Shown here: positions 3,879 to 55,687 of the stretch, piece after piece | How positions within the stretch are numbered: position 1 is the first letter of the stretch | How the letters are laid out: each line of letters opens with the position of its first letter | IMG/VR virus record: IMGVR_UViG_3300016466_000235 | Location: 1 to 60,367 of that record | DNA: 60,367 nucleotides | Direction: 5' to 3' (one strand) | Origin: a virus | Taxonomy: Duplodnaviria; Caudoviricetes | Made by a program: the position numbers and the translations under genes | Notes under the pieces: generated by a model | Seen by the model: the letters and a program-made list of their open reading frames with translations, nothing else | Database searches by the model: none | Told to the model about the DNA's origin: nothing

Positions 3879-4868
3879 ATGGCACGCACTACTTTTTCTG
3901 GCCCCGTGGTCTCCCCCGGCGGCTTCATTGGTCCTGTTCTTGGCGGTAACACCATTTTCACAGGCACCTTTTTCTACGTTAATCCCGCTACAGGCGCCGA
4001 TGGCAACGACGGATTGACCCCTGCTACCGCTGTTCAAAGCATTACCACTGCTTTTAATAAGTGTACTTCGGGTAATAACGATGTCGTCTATCTGATTGGT
4101 GACGGCACTACCGCAGGCACGGCCCGTATTTCTAGCACCCTGACATGGAATAAGAATGCCACTCACCTAATTGGTGTCTGCTCTCCCGTGGCGATTTCTC
4201 AGCGTGCCCGTATTTCTCACGCCGCCTCTGCTCCTACCACTGCGTTTACCCCGATGGTCCGTGTCACTGGAAATGGATGTCTGTTCTCAAACATTCAGAT
4301 TTTTGAAGGCTTTGCTGCTTCTACGGCAGTTGTGACTTGGGAAGATCAGGGCAATCGCAATTACTACTCAAATATGCAATTTGCTGGTATGGGTAATGCA
4401 ACCTACTCTGCTGATGAGACTGGAAGCGCCTGTTTGCTTCTGACCGGCGGCGGTGAGCATGTGTTTGACGGCTGCACATTTGGTGTTGATACAATCCCCC
4501 GTACGGTTGCTAACGCTAATATTCGTCTGCGTTCTGAGACTGCCCGTAATATCTTCCGTGGTTGTTTGACTTTAATCTATGCAACTGCTGCTGGTGTTCT
4601 GGCTGTTGATGCAAACGCTGCTAACTCTCTTAACCGTTGGGTTTTGTTTGAGGACTCAGTGTTTATCAATGCACAGAATATTTCAGGCGAAACAACTATG
4701 TCGGTTCTTGCTATTGGAAACGCAAACCAGAATGGTGTAATTCTTCTTACTAACTGTGTGCGTAATAACATCACTGCTTACGGTGCTGCTGGCGATCTAA
4801 TTAAGATTGCTAACTCCACTGATGCTGATACCACTAGCGCTGGTGGTGACTTCCAAAACGCCGCTTAA
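3879..4868 (+). CDS. virion protein with probable pectin-lyase-like beta-helix (head fibre/spike)
   Basis: MARTTFSGPV N-terminus; FYVNP..G.DGNDG.TP..A..SI..A motif; beta-helix-like periodicity; start follows the GAAAGGA RBS. Confidence 0.65.
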   Translation: MARTTFSGPVVSPGGFIGPVLGGNTIFTGTFFYVNPATGADGNDGLTPATAVQSITTAFNKCTSGNNDVVYLIGDGTTAGTARISSTLTWNKNATHLIGVCSPVAISQRARISHAASAPTTAFTPMVRVTGNGCLFSNIQIFEGFAASTAVVTWEDQGNRNYYSNMQFAGMGNATYSADETGSACLLLTGGGEHVFDGCTFGVDTIPRTVANANIRLRSETARNIFRGCLTLIYATAAGVLAVDANAANSLNRWVLFEDSVFINAQNISGETTMSVLAIGNANQNGVILLTNCVRNNITAYGAAGDLIKIANSTDADTTSAGGDFQNAA

Positions 4869-33167: not shown

Positions 33168-36033
33168 CTTTTTTGAAGTAGTAAGCCCAAACATTTGCTG
33201 ACCCAAGACCGTTCTTCCAACCAGCCCCAAGACGCTTTTTATCTCTCTTAATCAAAAGACCCGACTTCGTGAGCTTGTTTTCAAACTGCTCAAAGTTGGT
33301 CATGTTCCTCTCGGTCAAGTACTTCTTGAGTTCTGAAGAACTCACATAGACCATGCCTTCATCTACTTCGTACCTGACTTTCAATGCTGCCCTAGGTTCA
33401 AGCACGCACTTGTCACCATTGAAGGCAATTGAATGTTGAATATTCGCCAATAAGAAATCATCAACATAATCGGCCATGTCCTTGTTCGCGGCTTTTCTGT
33501 AGTTATGTTGGCGGTGCATATCCTTTAAGAAGAATTTAAACATTGCCTCAAGGTCGTAGTTTAACAACCCCATCCTGTTGGCTATTTCTCCTGCGGCAAA
33601 AATACACGCCGTAACACTATTCCAATAGGTATAGTCCGTCATGTCATAAAATTCACTTTCCATACGCAACTTCCATTTTTCAATAAGATTAGCTACGTAC
33701 GGCAGACCTAGTCGATATAGTTCTTCAATATAAACGGGCCCAGCATGTCCATAGTGATGCCGCAAAGGCTCTATCAAACTACGACCTACGCTATCAGATA
33801 ATTTAATACCTCCATTTAAGTTAATAATTTCAAACTCAAGTAGGCGCCGCATTTCACCACCAGCGTCAGGGTTGTAAGACTGAATTTTATCAATCACTGA
33901 TCTATTTGACGTCATAACAGTAATTAATTTAGAACCTTCATGAGTTTTACGTTCTTGATTGTATGAACTCTGCAGCCTGATCTTAGAAACTTCATTCATT
34001 GCTAATTTATAAACAACCTGACCAATAATTTCATCTTTCCAATGAGTAACCTCATCTAGCCCCAGCATTAGGCTATTAAGAGTTGTAGCTCGTGATATCA
34101 AAGCCTGTTGAGTTGCTCCATCTTGGGTTGCAATTTTTTGTTTTTCTGGATCGCCAAATACACTTAAACCACCATATAAAGTTCCCGTCTTACCCATACC
34201 CTTATCGCCGTTAAAAGAAATTGTGCAGCCCGGGATGTTGGATAGTGCAATCAACGGAGATGCAAAACCTACAAGCACTCCGTAAGCAAACATATAGTAC
34301 CGGTCAGTTTCCATATATTGCTGAACCGTTTTTTGCCAAACCTCAAGGTCTCCGTACTCTTTTAGAAGCGGCGCGACATTGCGTGTCGTAGATGCGATTG
34401 GGCAAGTAAAGCGGCCTCGTGGTGTTATTTCTAACTCACCGATTACAAATGATCCCTTCTCAGGGTTCTTAGTCCAGCCCATCTGGACGCGCATTTCTTC
34501 TACCTTTTGCATCTTAATCAAGTATGAGCTCCATTTCATAAGATATTCTTTGAAGTGAGGGAAGGCTATCTCAGTGATCATTACCGCGTTGGAGTACAAG
34601 AACTCTTTAAACGCATCGGTCTTGCCCAACATCTTCATTGGGATGATTAGATCCTGTACACCATCTTTAGGGGTGAAGTGCCGCATATGCAAGCACTCGC
34701 CGTCGAACGGACTCGTCATCCGTTTAATTGGTACTAGATCATATGGGTAAACCTGAAAGTCTTCTTGAACAATCTTTGTTCCGTCTTTGGCAGTCTTGTC
34801 AGGCATCTGCCTATATATACCACCGCTGATAGCACGTCTGAACGGGAAGAGTGCTTCGGGAAAGACTACATACTTCTGCGGGAACGTTTTGTCGTCTTCA
34901 TTTTGTACTGATTCTGGCTCAACTGATTCGACTGGTTCTGACTCGGTTGGTACTGTGGGAGGAGAAGACCCCGGTTCGGCGACGCGTAATCTGATTCCGA
35001 TCCCAATTGGGGACTTGGTTTTAACTTGCCCTTTATAGGGACAACCTTCGCAACCACCGGGGTTTGCGTCTTCAAACTTGTCGCACCCGTGTGCCCATTT
35101 TGCTTCGTTGAGACTTTGTTGGGCTTTTCTTTCTGTTTCGTCGTAGCTATATCCGGGGTAGTCTTCGGACATGAGGTGGATAGCTGTATCAGCATCAACA
35201 CACCTAGCGGCGACAGATATTCCAGCGTACCAGAGCGGCTCCGGACAACTAGCGGAGTTTTCGAGCATCCACTTGATCTGGTTGCACCCGTTTCCGTCGA
35301 GGGATCGTTGAGCAATTTCTTGAAAGACGTATTCATAATTGTCGTACCCAAGGAGTTTGAGAGTGTCTTCGTCTAGACCTTTTTTGACTTTCTTCAGGTC
35401 AAAGGCATCGGGGTTAATTTGCACTTCACCTAGGCGTGAAACGAAATCTTCCAAGTCGTAGGTAAAGATCTCAGTGATCAGCTCTGTGCCCGCAGTCGTA
35501 CCGTCCTTGTTGTACTTCGTCGTATAAGGGATACGTAAGACACGCGAGGAGTCGGCTGGCACTGCTGGGTCGATAACCAACCCATGATCCTGCATCATCT
35601 TTTTAAACGTGGACGCGTACATGCGCCACACCTTGGCTTCTATCTCTTCTTTAAGAATCCAGTAGACGTGCAGTCCGTTGCCAGAATCAACGATGGTTGG
35701 TTCAGGAAATTTATACGCCTCAATGAAAGACGCTAACGCCGCGAACGCTTCGTCGCGCGTGTTATAACTATTCTTTGCCTTACCAACGTCGATATCAATG
35801 AAGAACGTCTTAAGGTACATACTATCTTCGGCAAGGCGGCGATAGCCCTCAAAAGAAGACAGTGCAAAGTAGATGTTCCCTTCTTGTTTTTTCTGCTTTT
35901 CAATCTCCTTGTAAAGTTTTTCTAAGTCTGCATTCTCAATGAAGTGCTGATGAACTTCCTTGGTGCCTTTAATTCTTACTACGCAATAATTGCCTTGGCT
36001 TGGCAATATTGTCTCAAGAAATTTTTTGTACAT
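33118..36033 (-). CDS. primase-helicase (AEP/RepB-like primase, Cys cluster, DUF927-type P-loop helicase)
   Basis: FIDID, VDSGNGLHVYW, RVLRIP; Walker A GDKGMGKT; LDE. Confidence 0.85.
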   Translation of the reverse strand: MYKKFLETILPSQGNYCVVRIKGTKEVHQHFIENADLEKLYKEIEKQKKQEGNIYFALSSFEGYRRLAEDSMYLKTFFIDIDVGKAKNSYNTRDEAFAALASFIEAYKFPEPTIVDSGNGLHVYWILKEEIEAKVWRMYASTFKKMMQDHGLVIDPAVPADSSRVLRIPYTTKYNKDGTTAGTELITEIFTYDLEDFVSRLGEVQINPDAFDLKKVKKGLDEDTLKLLGYDNYEYVFQEIAQRSLDGNGCNQIKWMLENSASCPEPLWYAGISVAARCVDADTAIHLMSEDYPGYSYDETERKAQQSLNEAKWAHGCDKFEDANPGGCEGCPYKGQVKTKSPIGIGIRLRVAEPGSSPPTVPTESEPVESVEPESVQNEDDKTFPQKYVVFPEALFPFRRAISGGIYRQMPDKTAKDGTKIVQEDFQVYPYDLVPIKRMTSPFDGECLHMRHFTPKDGVQDLIIPMKMLGKTDAFKEFLYSNAVMITEIAFPHFKEYLMKWSSYLIKMQKVEEMRVQMGWTKNPEKGSFVIGELEITPRGRFTCPIASTTRNVAPLLKEYGDLEVWQKTVQQYMETDRYYMFAYGVLVGFASPLIALSNIPGCTISFNGDKGMGKTGTLYGGLSVFGDPEKQKIATQDGATQQALISRATTLNSLMLGLDEVTHWKDEIIGQVVYKLAMNEVSKIRLQSSYNQERKTHEGSKLITVMTSNRSVIDKIQSYNPDAGGEMRRLLEFEIINLNGGIKLSDSVGRSLIEPLRHHYGHAGPVYIEELYRLGLPYVANLIEKWKLRMESEFYDMTDYTYWNSVTACIFAAGEIANRMGLLNYDLEAMFKFFLKDMHRQHNYRKAANKDMADYVDDFLLANIQHSIAFNGDKCVLEPRAALKVRYEVDEGMVYVSSSELKKYLTERNMTNFEQFENKLTKSGLLIKRDKKRLGAGWKNGLGSANVWAYYFKKDAESFITETLGEDSSV

Positions 36034-37238: not shown

Positions 37239-37667
37239 TTACTGGTTGAGTGCTTCAAAGTCAAGTGACTGTGTTTCTTTGGATGGCTTACGTACCGTGA
37301 TGACATACTCCTTCGCCACGTTCACGCCGGGAGGGAGGCCATCCGATTCCTTCCCGATCATGAATTCTTCAAAGTTTGACTCATGAACCCGCTTCTGCAA
37401 AAGCTGCGGTGCGCGATTTTTGATGACAAACTCATAAAACGTATCCCAGTCAAGCACATGGAATCTTGACTTGACCCCGCGCATGACGGTGCCGTTGGGG
37501 GTACGGATACTATCTGCGCCCTGCTCCGCGCAAAGTTTGAGCATCTCTTGCTCAAGGATAGTCTGCTCAGATTTTAGGCTCTCATCTACTTTTTTAAACT
37601 CAAACGACAACTTCTCACGCTCGGTGCGTATCGCCATGTATGCACTGGTAAGGTCGTTAATATTCAT
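37239..37667 (-). CDS. conserved replication-module hypothetical protein
   Basis: S.RT..GT...DWD.FY.FV...LLQKRV...PPGV. Confidence 0.75.
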   Translation of the reverse strand: MNINDLTSAYMAIRTEREKLSFEFKKVDESLKSEQTILEQEMLKLCAEQGADSIRTPNGTVMRGVKSRFHVLDWDTFYEFVIKNRAPQLLQKRVHESNFEEFMIGKESDGLPPGVNVAKEYVITVRKPSKETQSLDFEALNQ

Positions 37668-39040
37668 ACTTCCTCCGTTTCTAACTCGTTTGTGTACAGT
37701 TCGACTAGTTTTGAATGTAGGTCAATCTTGTTCTCAAGCATTTTGTACATCTTGCGCTCTACCTCTGACCCTTCAAGGTTAATGACAGTCATCTTTTTCT
37801 GCTGTCCCACCCTATCAATACGCGCTACACACTGAATATAAGTCTCAACTGACATGACTGGCGACCAAAATATGATCGTATCAGCCGCAGTCAACGTGAC
37901 TCCATGTGATGCTGCTTGAGGCTGGATGACTAAAACCCGTGGGTTGTCTGTCGTCTGGAACCTGTTAAAGATAGCTCCTCGTTCAGATGCGCTTACGTCG
38001 CCTGAAATTATCTCTGCGGTATAACCCTCCTTTCTTAAGTAGTTTGTGACAAGCTGGATAGTGTGCGTGTACGGCACAAAGACCAGCACCTTATGCTCTG
38101 TCTCTTCCAGAGCTTCTTTTAAGATGGCAAGGCGGTTAGATATATCAAACTCAACTATCTCGCCATCATCCGTATAGACTGCGCCGCCTGACAACTGAAG
38201 AAGTTTTGTCAGTAACGCTGCTGCATTGACTGCTGAGATCTGCTCTCCCGCTGCCTTCACCATGCGGTCGTCACGGATCATTTTGTAATACCTTTGCTGC
38301 TGCAACGTAAGCGGCGCGGCCCTGTATTGATAGGTCACATCAGGTAGATCAAGACACTCTGCTTTGGTGTAGCGGATCGCAGGTTGAAGCGCCCTGTATA
38401 CGATGTCCCGTGACCCCGGCTTTGGTAACCACTTGAACTTGCTTACCTGGAACATGACTTTGTCTTGCCATGAGTTTTTAAATTTTGGTACGTTGTCAGG
38501 ACATACAAGCCGCGCTAGTCCGTACGCATCAATAGGTGACTGAGACGCAGGGGTGCCAGTCATCATCCACAATCCCATGTGCGGATACAAAATAGACCTT
38601 AAAGTCTTCCATCGTTGGGTGCTTGTGCTTTTGTATGCGTTGGCCTCGTCAACAATGACCAGATCAAACTGCGCGGCATTGATCTCACTGCGTACGATGT
38701 TTACACCATCGTAATTAATGATGATGAACTCGTAGTCGCTCTCAAGAATTTTCTTACGCTTGCTAGCCGATCCATGGGCAACGGCAGTTCGTCTGTGCAT
38801 CGCAGTCTTAAACAAGTCTGCTTGCCATGCCGAGTACATAATTGAGAGGGGACATATGACAAGAACTTTTTTTATTAAGCCAAGTTCCATAAGATAGTCC
38901 GCAGCCCATATCGCTGAGGATGTCTTGCCTGTGCCAGCTTCGTTAAAACAGAACGCGCGTCTGTTATTGACTAAAAAGTTAGCAGTGCTAATTTGATGTT
39001 GGAACGGTTTAAACAAACCGGGCCATTTGTAATCCTGCAT
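37664..39040 (-). CDS. SNF2-family (DEAD-like) helicase
   Basis: EAGTGKT, DEA, MTGTP, HGVTLTAA, ARIDRVGQ. Confidence 0.92.
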   Translation of the reverse strand: MQDYKWPGLFKPFQHQISTANFLVNNRRAFCFNEAGTGKTSSAIWAADYLMELGLIKKVLVICPLSIMYSAWQADLFKTAMHRRTAVAHGSASKRKKILESDYEFIIINYDGVNIVRSEINAAQFDLVIVDEANAYKSTSTQRWKTLRSILYPHMGLWMMTGTPASQSPIDAYGLARLVCPDNVPKFKNSWQDKVMFQVSKFKWLPKPGSRDIVYRALQPAIRYTKAECLDLPDVTYQYRAAPLTLQQQRYYKMIRDDRMVKAAGEQISAVNAAALLTKLLQLSGGAVYTDDGEIVEFDISNRLAILKEALEETEHKVLVFVPYTHTIQLVTNYLRKEGYTAEIISGDVSASERGAIFNRFQTTDNPRVLVIQPQAASHGVTLTAADTIIFWSPVMSVETYIQCVARIDRVGQQKKMTVINLEGSEVERKMYKMLENKIDLHSKLVELYTNELETEEV

Positions 39041-39258
39041 ACAACTCCTTTAACTAGATTCGACTAGACGTACTAGCTGGGGCCGAAGCCCCACTAGCAC
39101 GGTTGAACCTAACACGCCGGAGAGCATAGAGTGCAAGAGCGCCGTTCAACTGATGCGGTTAATTGAGACCACCGTGGGAGGGCGGCTCCTAAAGGCTCAC
39201 TCACACCTTACGACCTTCAGGCTATCAGGCAGAAAAGAAACTGATAGGCTCAGATCGT
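39041..39258 (-). ncRNA. candidate structured sRNA/leader RNA with CU-rich anti-SD loops
   Basis: ORF-free ~220 nt behind its own promoter; stems CTATCAG/CTGATAG, CCGCC/GGTGG, GTTGAAC/GTTCAAC and a long UUCG hairpin. Confidence 0.6.
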
Positions 39259-39286
39259 ATTTTAGGGCGACTTAAAAATATGTCAA
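39259..39286 (-). promoter_or_regulatory. sigma70-like promoter
   Basis: TTGACA-16 bp-TAAAAT on the minus strand. Confidence 0.7.
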
Positions 39287-39597
39287 GTCTTTTTTCGTTC
39301 GCGCTTGCTTTTTTCTGAAACTAGACGCCTAGAGGAATCCCTTAGAAACGAACGGTTGACACTTGCGGGCTGTATGGTGTAGCCATCTTTGTTATTACCA
39401 CCTTTGCTCAAAGCTTTTTTGTGAGAGACGTCTTTGCCCTCACGCATGTCTGCTTTGCCGTTACCGTTCTTGTCTTTGCCCTTCTTGTCAAGAGCACGTC
39501 TAGCCCGTTGTCGCTCCATGCGGTCTGCATGTTCACCCCGCGCAACTTGTTGCTCGTATTCTTTCTTGTAGGGCCTTGGCTTGTTGACGTAGGGCAT
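39283..39597 (-). CDS. small basic HNH-like protein
   Basis: YKKEY...RQRARR...GKDVSHKKALSKGG.N...NRS. Confidence 0.65.
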   Translation of the reverse strand: MPYVNKPRPYKKEYEQQVARGEHADRMERQRARRALDKKGKDKNGNGKADMREGKDVSHKKALSKGGNNKDGYTIQPASVNRSFLRDSSRRLVSEKSKRERKKT

Positions 39598-39599
39598 GA

Positions 39600-40262
39600 T
39601 TAAGCCTTATTAAATTTGCATGTTTTCACTGCGCAGTACGCACACAGAGCTGATGGAGACTCAACCCACTCGTCCTTCTCATGTGCCAACTTCAGTCGCT
39701 CAAGGTCGGGCAGGAAGTGCTCCCAAAGAGATGCGCTATTTTCTCTCGTATAGTCTTCTGATACAAGATGTTTTTTATTGACAAACACAAGAGCAGAGCG
39801 TACAGAGTCCACCTCAGAAAAGTGCGCAAAAATCATCAGCGCCATGAGCTTCAACTGGTTCACGTCAGGGTAGCGCTCACTGCCTGTCTTCCAGTCAACT
39901 ACTGTAGCGATCTTGTTCTCGCGGTTTAGGATGATCAGGTCAGCAATGCCTCGCACCCACCGATTCTTGTCTGAAAAGTCGCATGCGGTACGGTCAAACT
40001 TCAACGCCATCTTATGCTCAACCATCTTTTCTCCGGGTAGCTCCAAGATGGGATCAATATATTCCTTGTAGTGCAGATAATTTTTAGGTAGAGGTGTGCC
40101 ATCCTTAATGTAGTGTTCGATGGCGCTATGGATTCGTTGCCCTACAAGGATTGCTTCAGTGGGTACAAACTCAAAGTTCTTAAGAATTTTTATTTCATGG
40201 TATCTCTTAGGACACCCAGCAAAATCTTTAAGACTTGAGTACGACCACTGAAGCTGATCCAT
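39600..40262 (-). CDS. PD-(D/E)XK Cas4/RecB-like exonuclease
   Basis: SYSSL..F..CP...G..IH...RGIADL...DWKTG...QL...CAYC....C. Confidence 0.88.
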   Translation of the reverse strand: MDQLQWSYSSLKDFAGCPKRYHEIKILKNFEFVPTEAILVGQRIHSAIEHYIKDGTPLPKNYLHYKEYIDPILELPGEKMVEHKMALKFDRTACDFSDKNRWVRGIADLIILNRENKIATVVDWKTGSERYPDVNQLKLMALMIFAHFSEVDSVRSALVFVNKKHLVSEDYTRENSASLWEHFLPDLERLKLAHEKDEWVESPSALCAYCAVKTCKFNKA

Positions 40263-44291: not shown

Positions 44292-44656
44292 GTATTTTTC
44301 TCCTTTAGTTTGGCTTCGATGGCTCGGGCAAAATCAAACTCATCCTCATTGTCCATCGCATCATAGATGTCAGCCTCTGTCAGCCCAACCCATTCACGCT
44401 TTGCTAAATGCCTTCCTCTTGGTGTACATGGCTCCTTACAAGAGTCATACTTTTGGCAGCATAGTTCATACTCATCTTTAATCTTTGGTGAAATCTGAGC
44501 ATCACGAATTGGAAACCCACGCCTACGCACCTCTTCAAGCAAAGCATCATCAGTAACGTTCCGCCACTGTTCCATGCAAATCAACTCGGCAAAGTGTTCG
44601 ATGTCCCCATGCAAAGTCAGGCCGTGTTCTTCGATCAGTTTGAATACGTCAGTCAT
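44288..44656 (-). CDS. modular WVGLT/AIEAKLKEKN protein
   Basis: EWVGLTEADI...FARAIEAKLKEKNT. Confidence 0.7.
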   Translation of the reverse strand: MTDVFKLIEEHGLTLHGDIEHFAELICMEQWRNVTDDALLEEVRRRGFPIRDAQISPKIKDEYELCCQKYDSCKEPCTPRGRHLAKREWVGLTEADIYDAMDNEDEFDFARAIEAKLKEKNT

Positions 44657-44847
44657 TTCTTCTCCTCATGATTGTTTATCACCGTCACACCCTTACATGC
44701 CGCAGGCCAAATGTATTCGGCTTGATTGATAGTCAGGTCTCTCGGCCCGTCACGCAACATAGAAAGAAGTTGCGGCGTAGTAGCAGTCCAGTTCTTTGGC
44801 GCTGGCTCTTCTGGGCAAATCGTGAATGTATAAGGCAGTTTAGCCAT
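44653..44847 (-). CDS. hypothetical protein
   Basis: AAGGAGAAG RBS; coupled on both sides. Confidence 0.6.
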   Translation of the reverse strand: MAKLPYTFTICPEEPAPKNWTATTPQLLSMLRDGPRDLTINQAEYIWPAACKGVTVINNHEEKK

Positions 44848-46464: not shown

Positions 46465-46906
46465 AGAAGCTCTCTAAGTACGGGAATGTTGGGCGATCAT
46501 TGGCGATGTACGCACCGCCGATCCGTCTGTACGAAGTGGTTATAAATGCCATCTTGTTAGAACCATACATCTCACCCTTCATATATGTCAAGTGTTTGCT
46601 CGGTATGACTACAACAAAAAGTGAGGGCGTGACCATCCAACCGATCTCGTACAAGGGATGATCTGGGCGGCACTCATACACATCTCGTAGAAGATTCCCA
46701 CTAGACGGAAGCGCTAGTGGTTCGATAGTAGCCGCACGGATCATTGTGAGTTTGGACTTTATCTCATCAGGTAGTTCGTCTGGTGTGTAATACCTGATAA
46801 GGTTGTCCCCGACATACACCTCGTAGTTGCCCTCAATGAAAGCGACCGGCACACGATGGTGGTCTGTAAGAAGTGGATGTTGTATCGGGGTTAGTTTAGT
46901 TTGCAT
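46445..46906 (-). CDS. hypothetical protein
   Basis: In-operon overlapping ORF. Confidence 0.7.
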   Translation of the reverse strand: MQTKLTPIQHPLLTDHHRVPVAFIEGNYEVYVGDNLIRYYTPDELPDEIKSKLTMIRAATIEPLALPSSGNLLRDVYECRPDHPLYEIGWMVTPSLFVVVIPSKHLTYMKGEMYGSNKMAFITTSYRRIGGAYIANDRPTFPYLESFCGYTGK

Positions 46907-47792
46907 TTAGGCCCACAATCATGAGTTTCTGTAAGAACATGTAGCGGTGATCGTAGTAATGCATCGTGCCAAATTCTTCATCCACATGATCGATTTTAGG
47001 CAGGATCTCTTTGTCCAAATTACCGTGTTGAGTCTCTCGGGCGGTGCGCCACATCTTGTACTGAACTAAAAACTCAACAGGAAGCTCCTCCAAGCTTAAA
47101 TAAGATTTCATGGGCTCCGTGAATTCATACTGTTTATTGTCGTTCAGTTTGATCTTGCCGAAGCTCATCGGCTCGTTATCGCACACACAGAATACATACG
47201 CTTCACTGAACACAGACTTAGCTTCCTCAGAGGCTTTGTCCTCTGCCTCCTTCTCGCTTACAAACTTTTTGATCTTGTCCAACGTGTAAGACAAGGTTGC
47301 GGATTTGTAGGTTGGGTTGATCTCAAGTTTCAGGATTTCCGCGAGTTCGCTTGATACAAGCGGCATGTTGCGATTATGCGAAGTATATCTTCTTGACAGT
47401 GTTTCACGTATGTCTTCTACTTTTTTCTTGGGGTAGTAACGCTCGATTGGTACTACCGGAAGATCTTTCTTTATGGTTCTTATCAGCATCTTGAGGCTAT
47501 TAGATACACGGGAGAGTCTATCTATACCACGGCCTCGATCTCTCTTGACTAATGGGCTAACGAACCGATAAATCGTAGAAAGATCACCATCTTTTGTAGT
47601 GCCGGGCGTAGTAGTGATCGCCCCGACATAAGCGCCATCCTCAGTTGTGATAACCACCATATCGCTCTGATGAACGTCGTAAGCAAACCAGCCGAATACG
47701 ACATTAAGTTCTTGCATAAATTGCCGTGTTGCTTGGTTCTTGTTCAGCATCTCTAGTGCTTCGGGCTTTGTGAATTGGTTGGTGTATTTCAT
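46896..47792 (-). CDS. hypothetical protein
   Basis: 298 aa; AAGGAGAGCAC RBS. Confidence 0.75.
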   Translation of the reverse strand: MKYTNQFTKPEALEMLNKNQATRQFMQELNVVFGWFAYDVHQSDMVVITTEDGAYVGAITTTPGTTKDGDLSTIYRFVSPLVKRDRGRGIDRLSRVSNSLKMLIRTIKKDLPVVPIERYYPKKKVEDIRETLSRRYTSHNRNMPLVSSELAEILKLEINPTYKSATLSYTLDKIKKFVSEKEAEDKASEEAKSVFSEAYVFCVCDNEPMSFGKIKLNDNKQYEFTEPMKSYLSLEELPVEFLVQYKMWRTARETQHGNLDKEILPKIDHVDEEFGTMHYYDHRYMFLQKLMIVGLNAN

Positions 47793-48604
47793 GTGCTCTC
47801 CTTTATAAGGTCTACATCTTGCTCGTTGCTCGGGATACCCTGACCACTCTGTACAAGTATTTGCCTATATGCGTTCCTTTCTTTGTAGAGATGTTTGTAA
47901 TAAGCTTCCTTAAATGCTTTGAAAGTAAAATCACGTAGGCTTGGGGAGTCTAACTGTCTTTCAACTGCCCACTGCCTCCAATTAGCACTGCTACTAAGCT
48001 GCCTTACATCTTTTGCTGCCATGAAAGCGCACATCTTCTCTAGTGGGTCGTTGATTGTATTTAGCCTGACTGACTCCCCACGATACTGCTTCAGCATATT
48101 TATCAGTTCACCGGTAGATGAATTCATAAAGTAAGTCTTCATCAAGGTTATCTCTTCCTTGACAGAGTCCCGCACCGCTTTAGTCTTTGCGCGGTCGATC
48201 ACAGATACCGCAAGATGGTACTTAGAACTGTGGTGCACCTCACCCGTGTCTAGATGCACGCGCAGTCCGTTAAAGATCACATGCGTCTTGTCCCTCACAT
48301 ACGCCATGTCTCTGTGGTCCTGAAGACGGGTATAAAAGGATGGGAACAAACGATGGAGCATCATGTGTGCATCGCCACCATACCCGTTGGGGGCAATGAA
48401 CTCAAAGGTCCAGTCTTTGTGCAGTTTGCCGAGTACATTGCTGTAGAGTTTTATCTCAATGTAACCATCATGAACGATGTACTTGCGGTGTGAGTAGTCC
48501 CGTTTCCCCAACGGATACTCATTTTTTGTGCCCCGATACGGTGTCTTGGCATCCTTCAAAAATTCTTCGTACGTTTTACGTTTTACGATGTCGTTGTAAG
48601 CCAT
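47789..48604 (-). CDS. hypothetical protein
   Basis: 271 aa; GGAGG RBS. Confidence 0.75.
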   Translation of the reverse strand: MAYNDIVKRKTYEEFLKDAKTPYRGTKNEYPLGKRDYSHRKYIVHDGYIEIKLYSNVLGKLHKDWTFEFIAPNGYGGDAHMMLHRLFPSFYTRLQDHRDMAYVRDKTHVIFNGLRVHLDTGEVHHSSKYHLAVSVIDRAKTKAVRDSVKEEITLMKTYFMNSSTGELINMLKQYRGESVRLNTINDPLEKMCAFMAAKDVRQLSSSANWRQWAVERQLDSPSLRDFTFKAFKEAYYKHLYKERNAYRQILVQSGQGIPSNEQDVDLIKEST

Positions 48605-48605
48605 A

Positions 48606-49874
48606 TTAGCCCTCCATTAGAACTTTTTTGCCAACAGGAACTTCCAGTCCTTTGTTCTGCGTCACAAGCCAGAGCACAGGCGCTTGGTGTTCCCACTTGA
48701 TGTTGTTCTCCACATAACCGTCCGTGAAGACGATCACACACTCTGCGGAGATGTTTTTGTTATTTAAGAATTTACTTACACATGAAACCTTAGTTCCGCC
48801 ACCACCGACGGGCTTCAACATACCTGCAATACCAGCGTATGAACCAGTGAAGACCTGCTCGCCATGAACCTTTGCGTCCCACCAGACAACACGAACTTTC
48901 TCAGGTTCGACCGTCTCGCAAATCGAGACCAGTTCTGTAGCGAACGCGGTCAGCTCTGGCCCACCAATAGAACCGCTAGTGTCGATTGCCACCACGATCT
49001 CGCCCACAGTCTCGTTGTATGTAGATGGCATGTAGACATCATTTGCCACCAGACGACGATTGAATTTACGCCATGTATATTCTGACTTGCCTACTGTGTA
49101 TGAGGAGATAAAGTCTCTCAACACTTCGCGCCAATCGACCTTGACCTCAAGAAGACCATCAATGGCACGGTTAGTCTTACCTCCCAACACACCAGCCAAG
49201 ATCGCACCTTGACGCAACACGCGGTCGATGTCCGCGTCAATCTCTTTCTCGTCATAGTCTTTCGCGGACTCATAGTCGTGCTCATCAATTGAGTCACTAT
49301 CCATCAGGTCATCAATGTCGGTAGGCTTCGGTGGGTGGTTATTTTGCATTTCACCCTCACCTGAATCACTATCTTGCGGCTTACCTTTGCCTCTACCCGG
49401 ACCATTACCATCCTCAGGTTTTTCTTTCTTCTTCTTGCGCAGATAGTCATACACTTGTTGCATCGACCAGCCACGGAACATCTCATTCCATAGCGCTCCT
49501 GGTGGTAGCTGGATTGAGTTATCGTTCAGCAAGAAGATCATATCGTTGACAACAAAGTCTGCTGCCATGTTGGCGAGTCGTCGATCTTCCTTGAACATAG
49601 CCTTGCCACGGAGTATGTGGCGAAAGAACACATGACCATTCTCGTGCATGATCAAACCATTGAGTTGCTCGTCGGTTAGTTTCTGCATGAACTTGTAGCC
49701 ATACCGTTTATTGAGTCCGTCGGTATATGCGGTTGGAACATCCATCTCAACCGATGACTTACCCAACAAGATCACGCCAGACAGAAGCATGACCTTAGGG
49801 TTCTTCAGCAACGCAACGTGTGCTCTCTCAAGTCTCTGCTTCTGCATCAGTAAATCTAATTCTGCTTTACCCAT
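48606..49874 (-). CDS. DUF2201-type metallopeptidase-vWA protein
   Basis: TAYTDG, HENGH (HExxH), N.AAD..VN, MIDAS DTSGS, GGGGT, FTDG. Confidence 0.88.
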   Translation of the reverse strand: MGKAELDLLMQKQRLERAHVALLKNPKVMLLSGVILLGKSSVEMDVPTAYTDGLNKRYGYKFMQKLTDEQLNGLIMHENGHVFFRHILRGKAMFKEDRRLANMAADFVVNDMIFLLNDNSIQLPPGALWNEMFRGWSMQQVYDYLRKKKKEKPEDGNGPGRGKGKPQDSDSGEGEMQNNHPPKPTDIDDLMDSDSIDEHDYESAKDYDEKEIDADIDRVLRQGAILAGVLGGKTNRAIDGLLEVKVDWREVLRDFISSYTVGKSEYTWRKFNRRLVANDVYMPSTYNETVGEIVVAIDTSGSIGGPELTAFATELVSICETVEPEKVRVVWWDAKVHGEQVFTGSYAGIAGMLKPVGGGGTKVSCVSKFLNNKNISAECVIVFTDGYVENNIKWEHQAPVLWLVTQNKGLEVPVGKKVLMEG

Positions 49875-49883
49875 ATACCCTCC

Positions 49884-50990
49884 TTAGAGCATGTGATGGT
49901 TGTTAACTGCCCAGTTAGCCACGTCCTTGTTGACACGGGCAAACTTGGCTCGGGGACTACGCAACAGACATACAAACCAAATCGCTTGAATCTCGTGACT
50001 CTTGATGCGATTCACAAACTTCTGAAACGCAGTGAGTTTTTCTTGCCCGTCGATATGATCCAAAGCTTGGAATATCATCAGAAGCAACGCGGCAACGTCC
50101 TCATCTTTCGGCATGGTTACACCCTCGGGGTCCTTGAAGACATCAATAATCGGTGTCACCTTGTCCTGAAGTGATATGAACGCCATCATGTCACGGGCGG
50201 CTCGCTCGCCCACAGTGCCAGAAAGTAATCCAAGAGTGACTGCCTCAGACAATTGCTTCCTGACAACATGATCTGCCTTCTCCAACGAACGGGGAGAAAC
50301 AAACGACGTAGACTGCTTGTTTGGCATGAAGATATACGGATTCTCTTGCTGATCTGCGTCCATGTAAGACATAAGCATCCGTGGGTACATCGCCACAGTT
50401 GCACGGGTGACTGCACTGATGCCATTCTCGTCTGCCCACTTCAACCACTCCTTGAGCTTGGGCTTCTCCATGCGGACAATTGTGAGTCGGTTCGCAGTAT
50501 GCGCAGGTAGAACATCGCCCACACCATCCGACGCATTGTTAGAAGTCGCAAACACAATCGAACTCTCAGGCAACGGCACATCGCCTACAGTCCGCTCAAG
50601 ATACATGCGGGTGTAGATCGGCTGCATGAGCTTGGGAACCTTGAGTGCCTCGTCGATCATGATGACCTTGGGTCGTGGGTTACCCATGTTGAACACGCTA
50701 GCGACATAGTACTCAAGCGCCTTCGTATCGTGGTTCGGAATGGACGCGGCAATGTCCATCATCTCTTTGTTAGGACCGTCGATGTAGACATAGTCATACT
50801 TGTCTGTTTCGTAGTTGTCGCCCGGCCGTCTCCACTGATCTCCGTTATCAATGGCAATCTGTTTGAGGATAGAACTCTTACCGCATCCGGGCTCGGACAT
50901 CACCATGATTGTGTTGGTCGTACCGATCTGTTTGATAGCCTCAGTGACTTGCTCGATGGTGAGGGTGGGGTGGGTGTTGATTGCTGACAT
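49884..50990 (-). CDS. MoxR-like AAA+ ATPase
   Basis: Walker A EPGCGKS, Walker B MIDE, ATSN, NR, SPRS. Confidence 0.88.
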   Translation of the reverse strand: MSAINTHPTLTIEQVTEAIKQIGTTNTIMVMSEPGCGKSSILKQIAIDNGDQWRRPGDNYETDKYDYVYIDGPNKEMMDIAASIPNHDTKALEYYVASVFNMGNPRPKVIMIDEALKVPKLMQPIYTRMYLERTVGDVPLPESSIVFATSNNASDGVGDVLPAHTANRLTIVRMEKPKLKEWLKWADENGISAVTRATVAMYPRMLMSYMDADQQENPYIFMPNKQSTSFVSPRSLEKADHVVRKQLSEAVTLGLLSGTVGERAARDMMAFISLQDKVTPIIDVFKDPEGVTMPKDEDVAALLLMIFQALDHIDGQEKLTAFQKFVNRIKSHEIQAIWFVCLLRSPRAKFARVNKDVANWAVNNHHML

Positions 50991-51011
50991 ATGGCTCTCC
51001 TATTTAGTAGT

Positions 51012-52949: not shown

Positions 52950-53129
52950 TCACTCCTCCGTGAATTGATATTTAAGGATGTCCGCGAAGAAGTACTTCAG
53001 TTCTTCATCTTCTATAACATCATCAAAATAACGGGGTGAGTAGTTGCGAACTTTTGGCTTATGCTCGCGCTTGTGTTTACGCTCAAGAATGACGCGGTCG
53101 GCTTTGGACTTGATCTGATTGTGTTTCAT
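52950..53129 (-). CDS. 59-aa first gene of the early operon, absent from the ORF track
   Basis: AAGGAGAGCATC RBS; MKHNQIKSKADRVILERKHKREHKPKVRNYSPRYFDD...FTEE. Confidence 0.65.
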   Translation of the reverse strand: MKHNQIKSKADRVILERKHKREHKPKVRNYSPRYFDDVIEDEELKYFFADILKYQFTEE

Positions 53130-53421
53130 TTGATGCTCTCCTTTAAGTGTGTTGGTGCAGAATGCACCCAGAGGGACATGCTCCTACCATGCCCCTGAAG
53201 TTGGACTCTGCTACGCATAGGTCTACGCTTTTTGTCCCCTGCTTTTTTGGCAGTCACCTGTAGGTGAAAGGTTAAGGACCGAGTGAGGTCTGAATTGCCG
53301 GTCCAGATGTGCGCACCGCCAACCATCGGGCGATGACGCTCTCACTCTCACATGCCGGTACTGCTCGGGGATATGACTCCCCTACGCCTACGGCACGGCT
53401 GGTTGCTCCAACCAGCAAACC

Positions 53422-55022: not shown

Positions 55023-55241
55023 CTAGATGTTGATGATGAAGACCTTGGTGCAACGGGAAAAGCGGAAGGTGATGGCCGTGAAGCCGTCATGCTTGAGATC
55101 ACGCAGTTGCGCCTTATTCACATAGCCGCCGTGGCTGATGTGGTTGACCATGAAGTCCTTGTTGGCGTCCCAATCTGCAAGCACTGCGGCCTTGGACTTG
55201 TAGTCGCGTCCGTATGCGGGGGTGAGGGTGATGGTGTTCAT
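55023..55241 (-). CDS. early cassette gene
   Basis: GGAGAGCATT-ATG; LTPAYGRDYKSK..V.ADW...KDF. Confidence 0.7.
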   Translation of the reverse strand: MNTITLTPAYGRDYKSKAAVLADWDANKDFMVNHISHGGYVNKAQLRDLKHDGFTAITFRFSRCTKVFIINI

Positions 55242-55281
55242 AATGCTCTCCAAGAAAAGGGGGCCGAAGCCCCGGGGTTTA
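55239..55281 (-). repeat. cassette spacer copy 1 (stop-UUCG hairpin-RBS-ATG)
   Basis: Near-identical to 55408-55451. Confidence 0.85.
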
Positions 55282-55410
55282 AAGGTCCAGCCAAAGTGAT
55301 TCATCAGGAACGCGTCTAGCTAACTCTAGCTCTCTAGGGAACAGATCTAACTGAACGAACCCGTAGAGTTTGTAGTGCAACATCTGACCAAGCGTGAGTG
55401 ATGTATCCAT
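55279..55410 (-). CDS. early cassette gene, 43 aa
   Basis: GGAGAGCATC-ATG; MDTSLTLGQMLHYKLYGFVQLDLF... Confidence 0.55.
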   Translation of the reverse strand: MDTSLTLGQMLHYKLYGFVQLDLFPRELELARRVPDESLWLDL

Positions 55411-55451
55411 GATGCTCTCCAAGAAAGGGGGCCGAAGCCCCCGAGGGTTTA
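55408..55451 (-). repeat. cassette spacer copy 2
   Basis: TAAACCCTCGGGGGCTTCGGCCCCCTTTCTTGGAGAGCATCATG. Confidence 0.85.
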
Positions 55452-55634
55452 GCGATTGCGTTCTACTACGCATTCGCCACGGGCCTGAATGATCTTGTTG
55501 GACCAGACGGGTTTGACCACACACAGGACATCGTGGCGTGGGTACTTGAACATCCAAGCGATGGCTTCGGACTTGGACCAAGATTTGTGCTCGTGGGTCT
55601 TGTTGCCCCACTGCACGAGGGTGCGATACATCAT
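55449..55634 (-). CDS. early cassette gene, 61 aa
   Basis: GGAGAGCATC-ATG; ends exactly at spacer copy 2. Confidence 0.65.
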   Translation of the reverse strand: MMYRTLVQWGNKTHEHKSWSKSEAIAWMFKYPRHDVLCVVKPVWSNKIIQARGECVVERNR

Positions 55635-55687
55635 GATGCTCTCCTATAAGGTTGGGAAATATGGCAACACCGCGTTGCCATGACTAA

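Follow-up and report, generated by a model that had tools for sequence, protein, structure and literature searches.

Our comparative analysis concerns a 242-nucleotide (nt) gap on the minus strand (39041-39282) of the Caudoviricetes virus record IMGVR_UViG_3300016466_000235, the whole 60,367-base-pair (bp) stretch of which, a 96%-complete virus record, is called the window below. Structural genes occupy the plus strand of the window, and a minus-strand gene block runs from about 55.8 kilobases (kb) down to 33.1 kb. Within this block the gap separates a 104-amino-acid (aa) open reading frame (ORF; 39283-39597) from the gene of an SNF2-family helicase (37664-39040); genes encoding DNA polymerase A and a PD-(D/E)XK nuclease are found upstream, and one encoding a DUF927 primase-helicase downstream. 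The gap holds a structured RNA whose family, located directly before the SNF2 helicase in uncultured water phages, has not been described before. A pyrimidine-rich helix tip of this leader RNA is complementary to an extended Shine-Dalgarno (SD) sequence, here called a tag, at start sites of several upstream genes of the same phage, and tip and tag change together between lineages. The original prediction for this locus had described a free-standing small RNA (sRNA), transcribed from a promoter between an HNH gene and the helicase gene, with three loops directed against ribosome sites of the phage's own early genes; this interpretation was partly supported.

The predicted promoter, stems and UUCG hairpin were all found. 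The -35 hexamer of the sigma-70-like promoter shares bases with the TGA stop codon of the 104-aa ORF, and by sequence reading the -35 region is identical in all close copies of the leader, the -10 element varying among them while keeping A2 and T6. In a looser scan (at least four of six positions in the -10 hexamer, spacer 15-19 nt), the sole other promoter-like site on the minus strand of the window was cTTGACAtat, 18 nt, TATGGT at 46591, with the same TTGACATAT start as the leader promoter. The description of the gap as free of ORFs holds for frames of at least 60 aa, of which there are none, but not for smaller ones, since ORFs of 31, 31 and 40 aa are present. The proposed HNH neighbour was not borne out: the 104-aa ORF is basic, has no Pfam match and weakly matches only phrog_4590, of unknown function. 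A clear HNH endonuclease family match (phrog_1314) lies elsewhere, at 48606-49874.

Helicase relatives in IMG/VR gave one alignable leader, and exact scans with conserved stretches added more, yielding 14 close copies (sub-family A) with an RNA of about 215 nt, all of which precede the helicase. Searching with a degenerate pattern of the most conserved core brought 51 additional, more distant loci, and in 45 of them a helicase homologue starts 330-380 nt past the pattern; by coordinate reading, five of the remaining six are cut by the contig end and the sixth (L089) is without a helicase. Public viral and metagenomic contigs contain at least 60 copies of the RNA, and a narrow model recovers 38 of the 51 distant loci at E <= 0.01. 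Four pattern matches inside coding regions (L029, L031, L032 and L035) were discarded. In L089 the RNA-core copy (4585-4770, minus strand) scores 30.8 bits with model R1, and no ORF of at least 60 aa begins just downstream of it. The helicase itself occurs in two forms, that of the window sub-family beginning at a conserved DYxWPG motif and that of the distant relatives having about 70 additional N-terminal residues (MxIVDNxA...); the leader accompanies both (window 37664-39040; loci L003-L016 and L041-L091). The idea that the RNA had replaced these N-terminal residues was rejected, as phages that retain the extension also carry the RNA.

No known family accounted for the element. The whole window gave no match at gathering score to any model of Rfam 15 (C4 antisense RNA, HEARO, group I introns, riboswitches and ribozymes among them), and a search of 38800-39700 with E up to 10 returned one match, on the opposite strand in the helicase coding region, to a fly long non-coding RNA model (15.2 bits against a cut-off of 50 bits, E = 1.7). 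A blastn comparison of 2.5 kb around the gap with annotated phage records produced no match, and an exact-pattern scan of bacterial and archaeal genomes for the P3 motif gave none either, hence no clue to the host. Readings as a group I intron, a HEARO element or a retron-like element were set aside: Rfam gave no model match, and the scan of neighbouring genes showed neither a reverse transcriptase nor an IscB-type gene.

Across the family the RNA shows one order of elements: the P2 helix, which includes an invariant core (AGGCAUGAGUG...UAACC), P3, a G+C-rich P4, an A/U-rich spacer and the ribosome site of the helicase (Table 1). Sub-family A adds the P1 hairpin at the 5' end; in sub-family B and the other distant copies neither P1 nor a promoter-like site is found, and the RNA starts some 8 nt beyond the upstream gene's stop codon. 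Folded alone, the leader of the window reaches -78.8 kcal/mol (z = -3.0). Covariation backs the fold. In the covariance-model alignment of the 14 close copies, 95.4% of cells are paired, a share that falls to 38-49% on sliding the 3' partners, and changes on both sides occur in 18 of 50 pairs, compared with at most 6 after sliding. None of 500 shuffles reached the observed values on four of five covariation measures, and 87 of 500 did so on the fifth, the count of further pair types. The shared helices of 31 diverse copies are 97.1% paired; sliding lowers the figure to 25-36%. Since many pairs are G-U, the fold was assigned to the helicase-sense strand.

The register of P3 determines where its loop lies. 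A first inner helix, GGCGUU/GAUGCC, was dropped in favour of the GCG/CGC register, for which covariation is seen in both sub-families; in the 31 diverse copies one inner P3 pair occurs as CG (17) and as UA (9), and this register places the window sequence AUGCUCUCC in the P3 tip. In a P3 helix of seven pairs, six change on both sides. The pyrimidine stretch of this tip is the only one of the three predicted targeting loops that is present family-wide; the P2 tip is variable, and the P1 loop is confined to the window sub-family. The most conserved part of the RNA is the P2 core, in which AGGCAUGAGUG and UAACC form an asymmetric internal loop (window 39207-39190 and 39162-39152) that may be a protein or ligand site. 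RNAalifold also proposed a long-range pairing of 3 bp between CCU and the AGG of the helicase SD sequence, all columns of which are invariant and constitute evidence neither way.

Table 1. Features of the leader RNA, the adjoining helicase gene and the tagged start sites in the window.
Feature	Coordinates	Strand	Remarks
Sigma-70-like promoter: TTGACA (39286-39281), 16 nt, TAAAAT (39264-39259)	39259-39286	-	11 of 12 positions as in the consensus
P1 hairpin CUAUCAG/CUGAUAG, loop UUUCUUUUCUGC (39240-39229)	39222-39247	-	Sub-family A only; 4 of 5 pairs change on both sides
P2: base helix GGUGUG/CGCAUC and conserved core (G)UGAGUG...UAACC	39152-39207	-	Family-wide; helix 98.8% paired in 31 sequences; variable tip hairpin contains GCCCUCC (39183-39177)
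P3: base helix GUUGAAC/GUUCAAC, inner helix GCGCU/GGCGU (39142-39138 with 39118-39114)	39102-39150	-	
Pyrimidine-rich tip of P3	39137-39119	-	
Candidate seed AUGCUCUCC in the P3 tip	39119-39127	-	Inside the GTTGAAC/GTTCAAC stem
P4: 15-bp G+C-rich hairpin, UUCG loop	39069-39101	-	No U-tract after it
A/U-rich spacer, helicase SD sequence GGAG (39048-39045) and ATG (39040-39038)	39038-39068	-	No extended tag
SNF2-family helicase gene, 458 aa	37664-39040	-	Follows the RNA wherever downstream sequence suffices, with one exception (L089)
Tag GGAGAGCAU before 59-aa ORF 52950-53129	53133-53141	-	Duplex -16.2 kcal/mol
Tag GGAGAGCAU before 72-aa ORF 55023-55241	55243-55251	-	Right after a terminator-like hairpin
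Tag GGAGAGCAU before 43-aa ORF 55279-55410	55412-55420	-	Right after a terminator-like hairpin
Tag GGAGAGCAU before 61-aa ORF 55449-55634	55636-55644	-	
8-nt tag GGAGAGCA before 298-aa ORF 46896-47792	47794-47801	-	
7-nt tag GGAGAGC before ATPase gene 49884-50990	50994-51000	-	

Within the window, AUGCUCUCC (39127-39119) is complementary to GGAGAGCAU at four ribosome sites, so that the predicted 9-nt matches at 53133, 55243, 55412 and 55636 were confirmed, and the shorter matches of 8 and 7 nt were likewise present. The genes behind these sites are four small ORFs without a family, one ORF of 298 aa and one ATPase. The shared stretch GGAGAGCAT occurs five times in the window against 0.52 expected, a count that none of 100 shuffles reached; four minus-strand copies each precede an ATG by 1-3 nt, and the sole inverted copy is in the leader. 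Five relatives have 0-2 copies: G003 and G004, which do not carry the RNA, and G005-G007, among which the distant form is present in G005 and G006. The two copies in G005 lie, by position, outside any early-gene block, and G007 has one copy. In five sub-family B genomes GGAGAGGGAG is present in 0-1 copies, and where it occurs we take the single copy to be the leader's own complement.

The four 9-nt sites are not independent of one another, as two of them follow near-identical terminator-like hairpins. This GGGGCUUCGGCCCC-UUUUCUU hairpin, fused to GGAGAGCAU, recurs before different small ORFs (window 55243-55275 and 55412-55445), and the same hairpin-tag junction is seen near 33785 of G001, the nearest large relative of the window, before an ORF without evident likeness by eye. 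The recurrence suggests a shared module boundary. The other two predicted loops also found partners: the GCCCUCC of the P2 tip has a single 7-nt match, GGAGGGC at 48609-48615, in the start region at 48604, and the P1 loop pairs over 10 bp, two of them G-U, with the start region at 44656, where GGAGAAGAAA is located before the ATG, and over 9 bp each with those at 44847 and 45193. The pyrimidine-rich P1 and P2-tip loops of the window can pair with a second set of sites (GGAGAAGAA, 10 bp with two G-U, and several of 9 bp) and with a single GGAGGGC site. Neither loop is family-wide, and we attach little weight to them.

The matching of tip and tag was also compared between phages. In 12 larger RNA-bearing records, the P3 tip was compared with candidate start regions, and permutations used one genome for each of 10 lineages. 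At 8 nt or longer, the summed fraction of upstream sites matched by the phage's own tip was 1.295, against a derangement mean of 0.269 (maximum 0.847; 0 of 20,000), and at 9 nt or longer it was 0.557 against 0.067 (again 0 of 20,000); the excess of own sites was also not attained in 20,000 derangements when one G-U was allowed at 9, 10 or 11 bp. The predicted co-variation of the loop with each phage's early ribosome sites was therefore found, the own fit exceeding every derangement. Matches of at least 8 nt are concentrated in one set of genes: 62 of 503 upstream same-strand candidate starts carry one, compared with 7 of the 269 downstream and 5 of the 404 opposite-strand candidates (12 of 673 elsewhere), which corresponds to a Fisher odds ratio of 7.7 (P = 8.6e-14).

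In several phages the tip complements the commonest extended ribosome site, as in the pair CCUCCCUGUUU with AACAGGGAGG. The tip of G012, ACCUCCCUGUUUG, pairs with AACAGGGAGG and has 9-12 own sites of the form AACAGGGAG(G); that of G017, UUGAUCUCC, pairs with GGAGAUCAA (4-6 own sites, GGAGAUCA(A)), and that of G015, UACUUCUCCUU, with AAGGAGAAGUA (4 own sites, AAGGAGAAGU(A)). G008 and G009 share the tip CUCUCCUUU and the own sites AAAGGAGAG, and the window tip AUGCUCUCC has 5-6 own sites. In G001 the tip CAUGUGAUGCCUCC pairs with GGAGGUAUCACAUG, and its 4 own sites, GGAGGUAUCAC(AUG), extend over 11-14 bp with one G-U. The letters beyond GGAG vary between phages, both in sequence and in the side, 5' or 3', on which they stand. 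For the window, G012 and G017 (in the last a tied commonest), the only same-strand complement of the commonest upstream 8-mer is inside P3; in G015 two of the three tied commonest 8-mers have their sole complement there and the third has one of its two, and in G008 the P3 complement is one of two copies. The resemblance of the tip to the 3' end of 16S ribosomal RNA was considered and judged unlikely: no small-subunit rRNA match was obtained, and the G012 tag AACAGGGAG and the varied extensions do not fit a constant tail.

The comparison of the window with G001 illustrates the joint change, as loop and dominant tag have both changed together. The ATPase orthologues of the two phages, 68% identical and with the same start, differ in their tags: the window gene has the window type and the G001 gene the G001 type, each fitting the tip of its own phage. 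In the G001 contig (L039), the two earliest small genes (near 33785 and 34184, plus coordinates) bear the window-type tag GGAGAGCAUCAUG; the G001 tip fits a different tag, and its pairing with GGAGAGCAUCAUG needs a one-base bulge. One of these two genes is homologous by eye to the 43-aa ORF of the window (55279-55410). In L017 and L020, a second copy of GACTTGACATAT stands about 6.9 kb and 7.0 kb, respectively, upstream of the leader and forms a 9-bp palindrome (TTGACATAT...ATATGTCAA) that encloses the ribosome site GGGGAGGCAAA and an ATG, and this palindrome may be an operator or an RNA hairpin over the start site.

We favour, with modest confidence, a reading in which the P3 tip pairs with the tagged early start sites of its own phage and shuts those genes down as the transcript of the replication module accumulates. 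The scaffold of P2, P3 and P4, with P1 in the window sub-family, would present a pyrimidine-rich tip of 15-25 nt, which would base-pair over 8-14 nt with the tag that some genes of the same phage carry; these genes are encoded upstream on the leader's strand and taken to be early. In the case of the window, AUGCUCUCC would pair with GGAGAGCAU. The duplex would cover the ribosome site, and in G001 the start codon too, and thereby block binding of the 30S subunit. The helicase, whose own site is without a tag, would escape. The leader may act in trans either as a separate RNA or while joined to the helicase message, and the silencing, if it is the effect of the pairing, would provide an early-to-middle switch. 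Of the features expected of a multi-target sRNA, complementarity of a loop to several initiation regions was found in the window (the 9-mer at four sites, with further sites of 8 and 7 nt), and joint change of seed and targets between relatives was found as well, unevenly.

Several observations weigh against this interpretation. The strongly conserved P2 core is unaccounted for by a model of tip and tag. A discrete transcript with its own promoter and terminator was not recognized: the promoter-like site of the window is absent in sub-family B, most family members are without one, and no canonical terminator was called after P4 in the window or in sub-family B, which by reading has just four U after a gap of 2 nt following P4. 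These features run counter to the predicted free-standing sRNA unit, and a separate RNA species may never exist. The sequencing runs listed for this sequence include no RNA run. The in-window match taken by itself is not beyond chance, the start regions matched by the leader being within the range of dinucleotide shuffles (P 0.13-0.49); the originally quoted probability of about 1e-3 is valid solely for a 9-mer named beforehand. Target duplexes range from -14.1 to -18.5 kcal/mol, with the most stable 1% of random 28-mers beginning at -17.9, a mark that just one of the eight listed targets (-18.5) passes, and the single-sequence partition function pairs the window 9-mer (unpaired probability 0.00-0.22). 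Between phages, the own count at 9 nt or longer with Watson-Crick pairs is 0 in G001, G011, G014 and G016; with one G-U allowed it is still 0 in G016. About three lineages fit poorly, the match being weak in G011 and G014 and not specific at all in G016. The tips of G011, G008 and G009 also fit generic AAGGAG sites of other phages. In addition, start regions were taken from simple rules and not from a trained gene finder, lineages share ancestry, and several contigs are fragments, some without the early block.

The constant position of the RNA before the same gene is also what a purely cis-acting leader or intercistronic element would show, one serving helicase translation, processing, stability or protein binding in the manner of the T4 gene 32/43 operators. 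The tip would then be a generic anti-SD stretch and its fit to the sites of other genes a by-product. We consider this explanation unlikely, though several observations support it: the RNA always adjoins the helicase start, a promoter of its own is lacking in most members, no terminator separates RNA and gene, the sequence of the P2 core is conserved in the way expected where a protein or ligand binds, and the G008, G009 and G011 tips match AAGGAG across phages. Against it, the possible pairing of the tip with the helicase ribosome site is by reading just 4-5 nt, all in invariant columns, and the corresponding duplex in the window reaches only -10.3 kcal/mol. The lineage-specific letters of the tip, moreover, match flanks outside the SD sequence (AACA in G012, AGCAU in the window, UAUCACAUG in G001 and AUCA in G017), and in the comparisons of own with other phages the own fit was equalled in none of 20,000 permutations.

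The same complementarity and co-variation would be expected if the logic were reversed, that is, if the tip restrained helicase translation in cis and abundant tagged early messages titrated the tip, the leader acting as a sensor of early-gene expression and switching the replication genes on. The leader is physically part of the helicase message; but the cis pairing of tip and helicase site is short and its form is not conserved, and no covariation of an alternative structure was seen. We consider this reversal improbable. Still less credence belongs to the idea that the shared motif is bound as double-stranded DNA by a regulator of phage or host, the leader copy being one such site in opposite orientation. 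The leader does carry a single inverted copy of a repeated asymmetric motif, but the forward copies keep a constant short spacing from the start codons and contain the SD core, the inverted copy is always in the tip of an RNA helix supported by covariation, and the G001 match runs through the AUG and requires a G-U that would be a mismatch in DNA. Chance together with shared composition, by which pyrimidine-rich loops always fit purine-rich ribosome sites, agrees with the non-significant in-window tests and with duplex energies that are strong but not extreme, but is already disfavoured, and barely credible, in view of the composition-preserving cross-genome controls (0 of 20,000) and the restriction of matches to upstream same-strand genes.

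The proposed pairing of the tip with tagged early sites has parallels in known systems. In S. aureus, RNAIII and Rsa-type sRNAs expose UCCC hairpin loops that pair with the SD regions of several mRNAs and repress their translation (PMC3861533). The leader shares with them a structured RNA, a pyrimidine-rich loop and several SD targets, but there is no match in sequence or Rfam model; the leader is phage-encoded and embedded before a helicase gene, its seed runs past the SD sequence into a phage-specific tag, and its presumed targets are the phage's own genes. The loops of the c4 antisense RNA pair at the ribosome site, and phages P1 and P7 differ in it by matched changes of loop and target. 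This same-operon RNA of P1 and P7 blocks the phage genes icd/ant by antisense binding (PMC8198154). Antisense binding of a phage RNA to phage genes is common to c4 and the reading favoured here; in contrast to c4, which has one downstream target on its own transcript, the leader has many targets located 4-16 kb upstream, it matches no Rfam family (C4 presumably included), and it differs in size and fold.

Phage T4 performs the same task, the bulk inactivation of early messages at their initiation regions, with proteins: RegB cuts GGAG in early ribosome sites, middle and late messages escaping it, and the translational repressor RegA is encoded in the replication gene cluster (PMC3014915). In the present phages the proposed agent is an RNA, with specificity by base pairing. 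The tags, for their part, resemble the start-associated sequences (SAS) of Cluster K mycobacteriophages, a repeated asymmetric motif with an SD core that stands a few bases before gene starts, always oriented alike and confined to the non-structural half of the genome, and whose binder, RNA or protein, was left open by its authors (PMC3203893). The window tags are likewise repeated, asymmetric, built on an SD core, in one orientation and before non-structural genes; as sequence (GGGATAGGAGCCC for SAS), phages and hosts differ, they are an analogue of SAS and not a member. SAS has no known partner, whereas a candidate RNA partner is identified here. Structured RNAs immediately before a replication gene are known from the translational operators of T4 genes 32 and 43 (PMC3014915), and candidate cis-regulatory RNAs have been mined from IMG/VR (PMC10690425); in distinction from the leader as we read it, both act on the downstream gene only. 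The word 'helicase' is absent from the main text of the latter study, although its approximately 8,500 candidates (29-151 nt) could include part of the motif (PMC10690425). The literature searched yielded no description of a phage tag/anti-tag RNA system.

Regardless of mechanism, the fold constitutes a new and well-supported RNA family. Should the pairing be functional, it would be the first such case found of a lytic-type phage timing its own expression with a multi-target RNA that reads a standardised ribosome-site tag, and start-associated motifs, whose function has been open since 2011 (PMC3203893), would gain a concrete RNA partner. The natural tag/anti-tag pairs, a few bases apart between relatives, would then ease compensatory-mutation tests. 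There is about an even chance, in our judgement, that this phage group runs an RNA address system with SD tags on early genes and an anti-tag loop heading the replication module, reprogrammable by few bases; with the same evenly balanced expectation, tag and anti-tag would co-evolve, and transcription of the replication genes would in this way silence the tagged early genes. If so, the leader would be the RNA equivalent of T4 RegB/RegA and a candidate for the binder of SAS.

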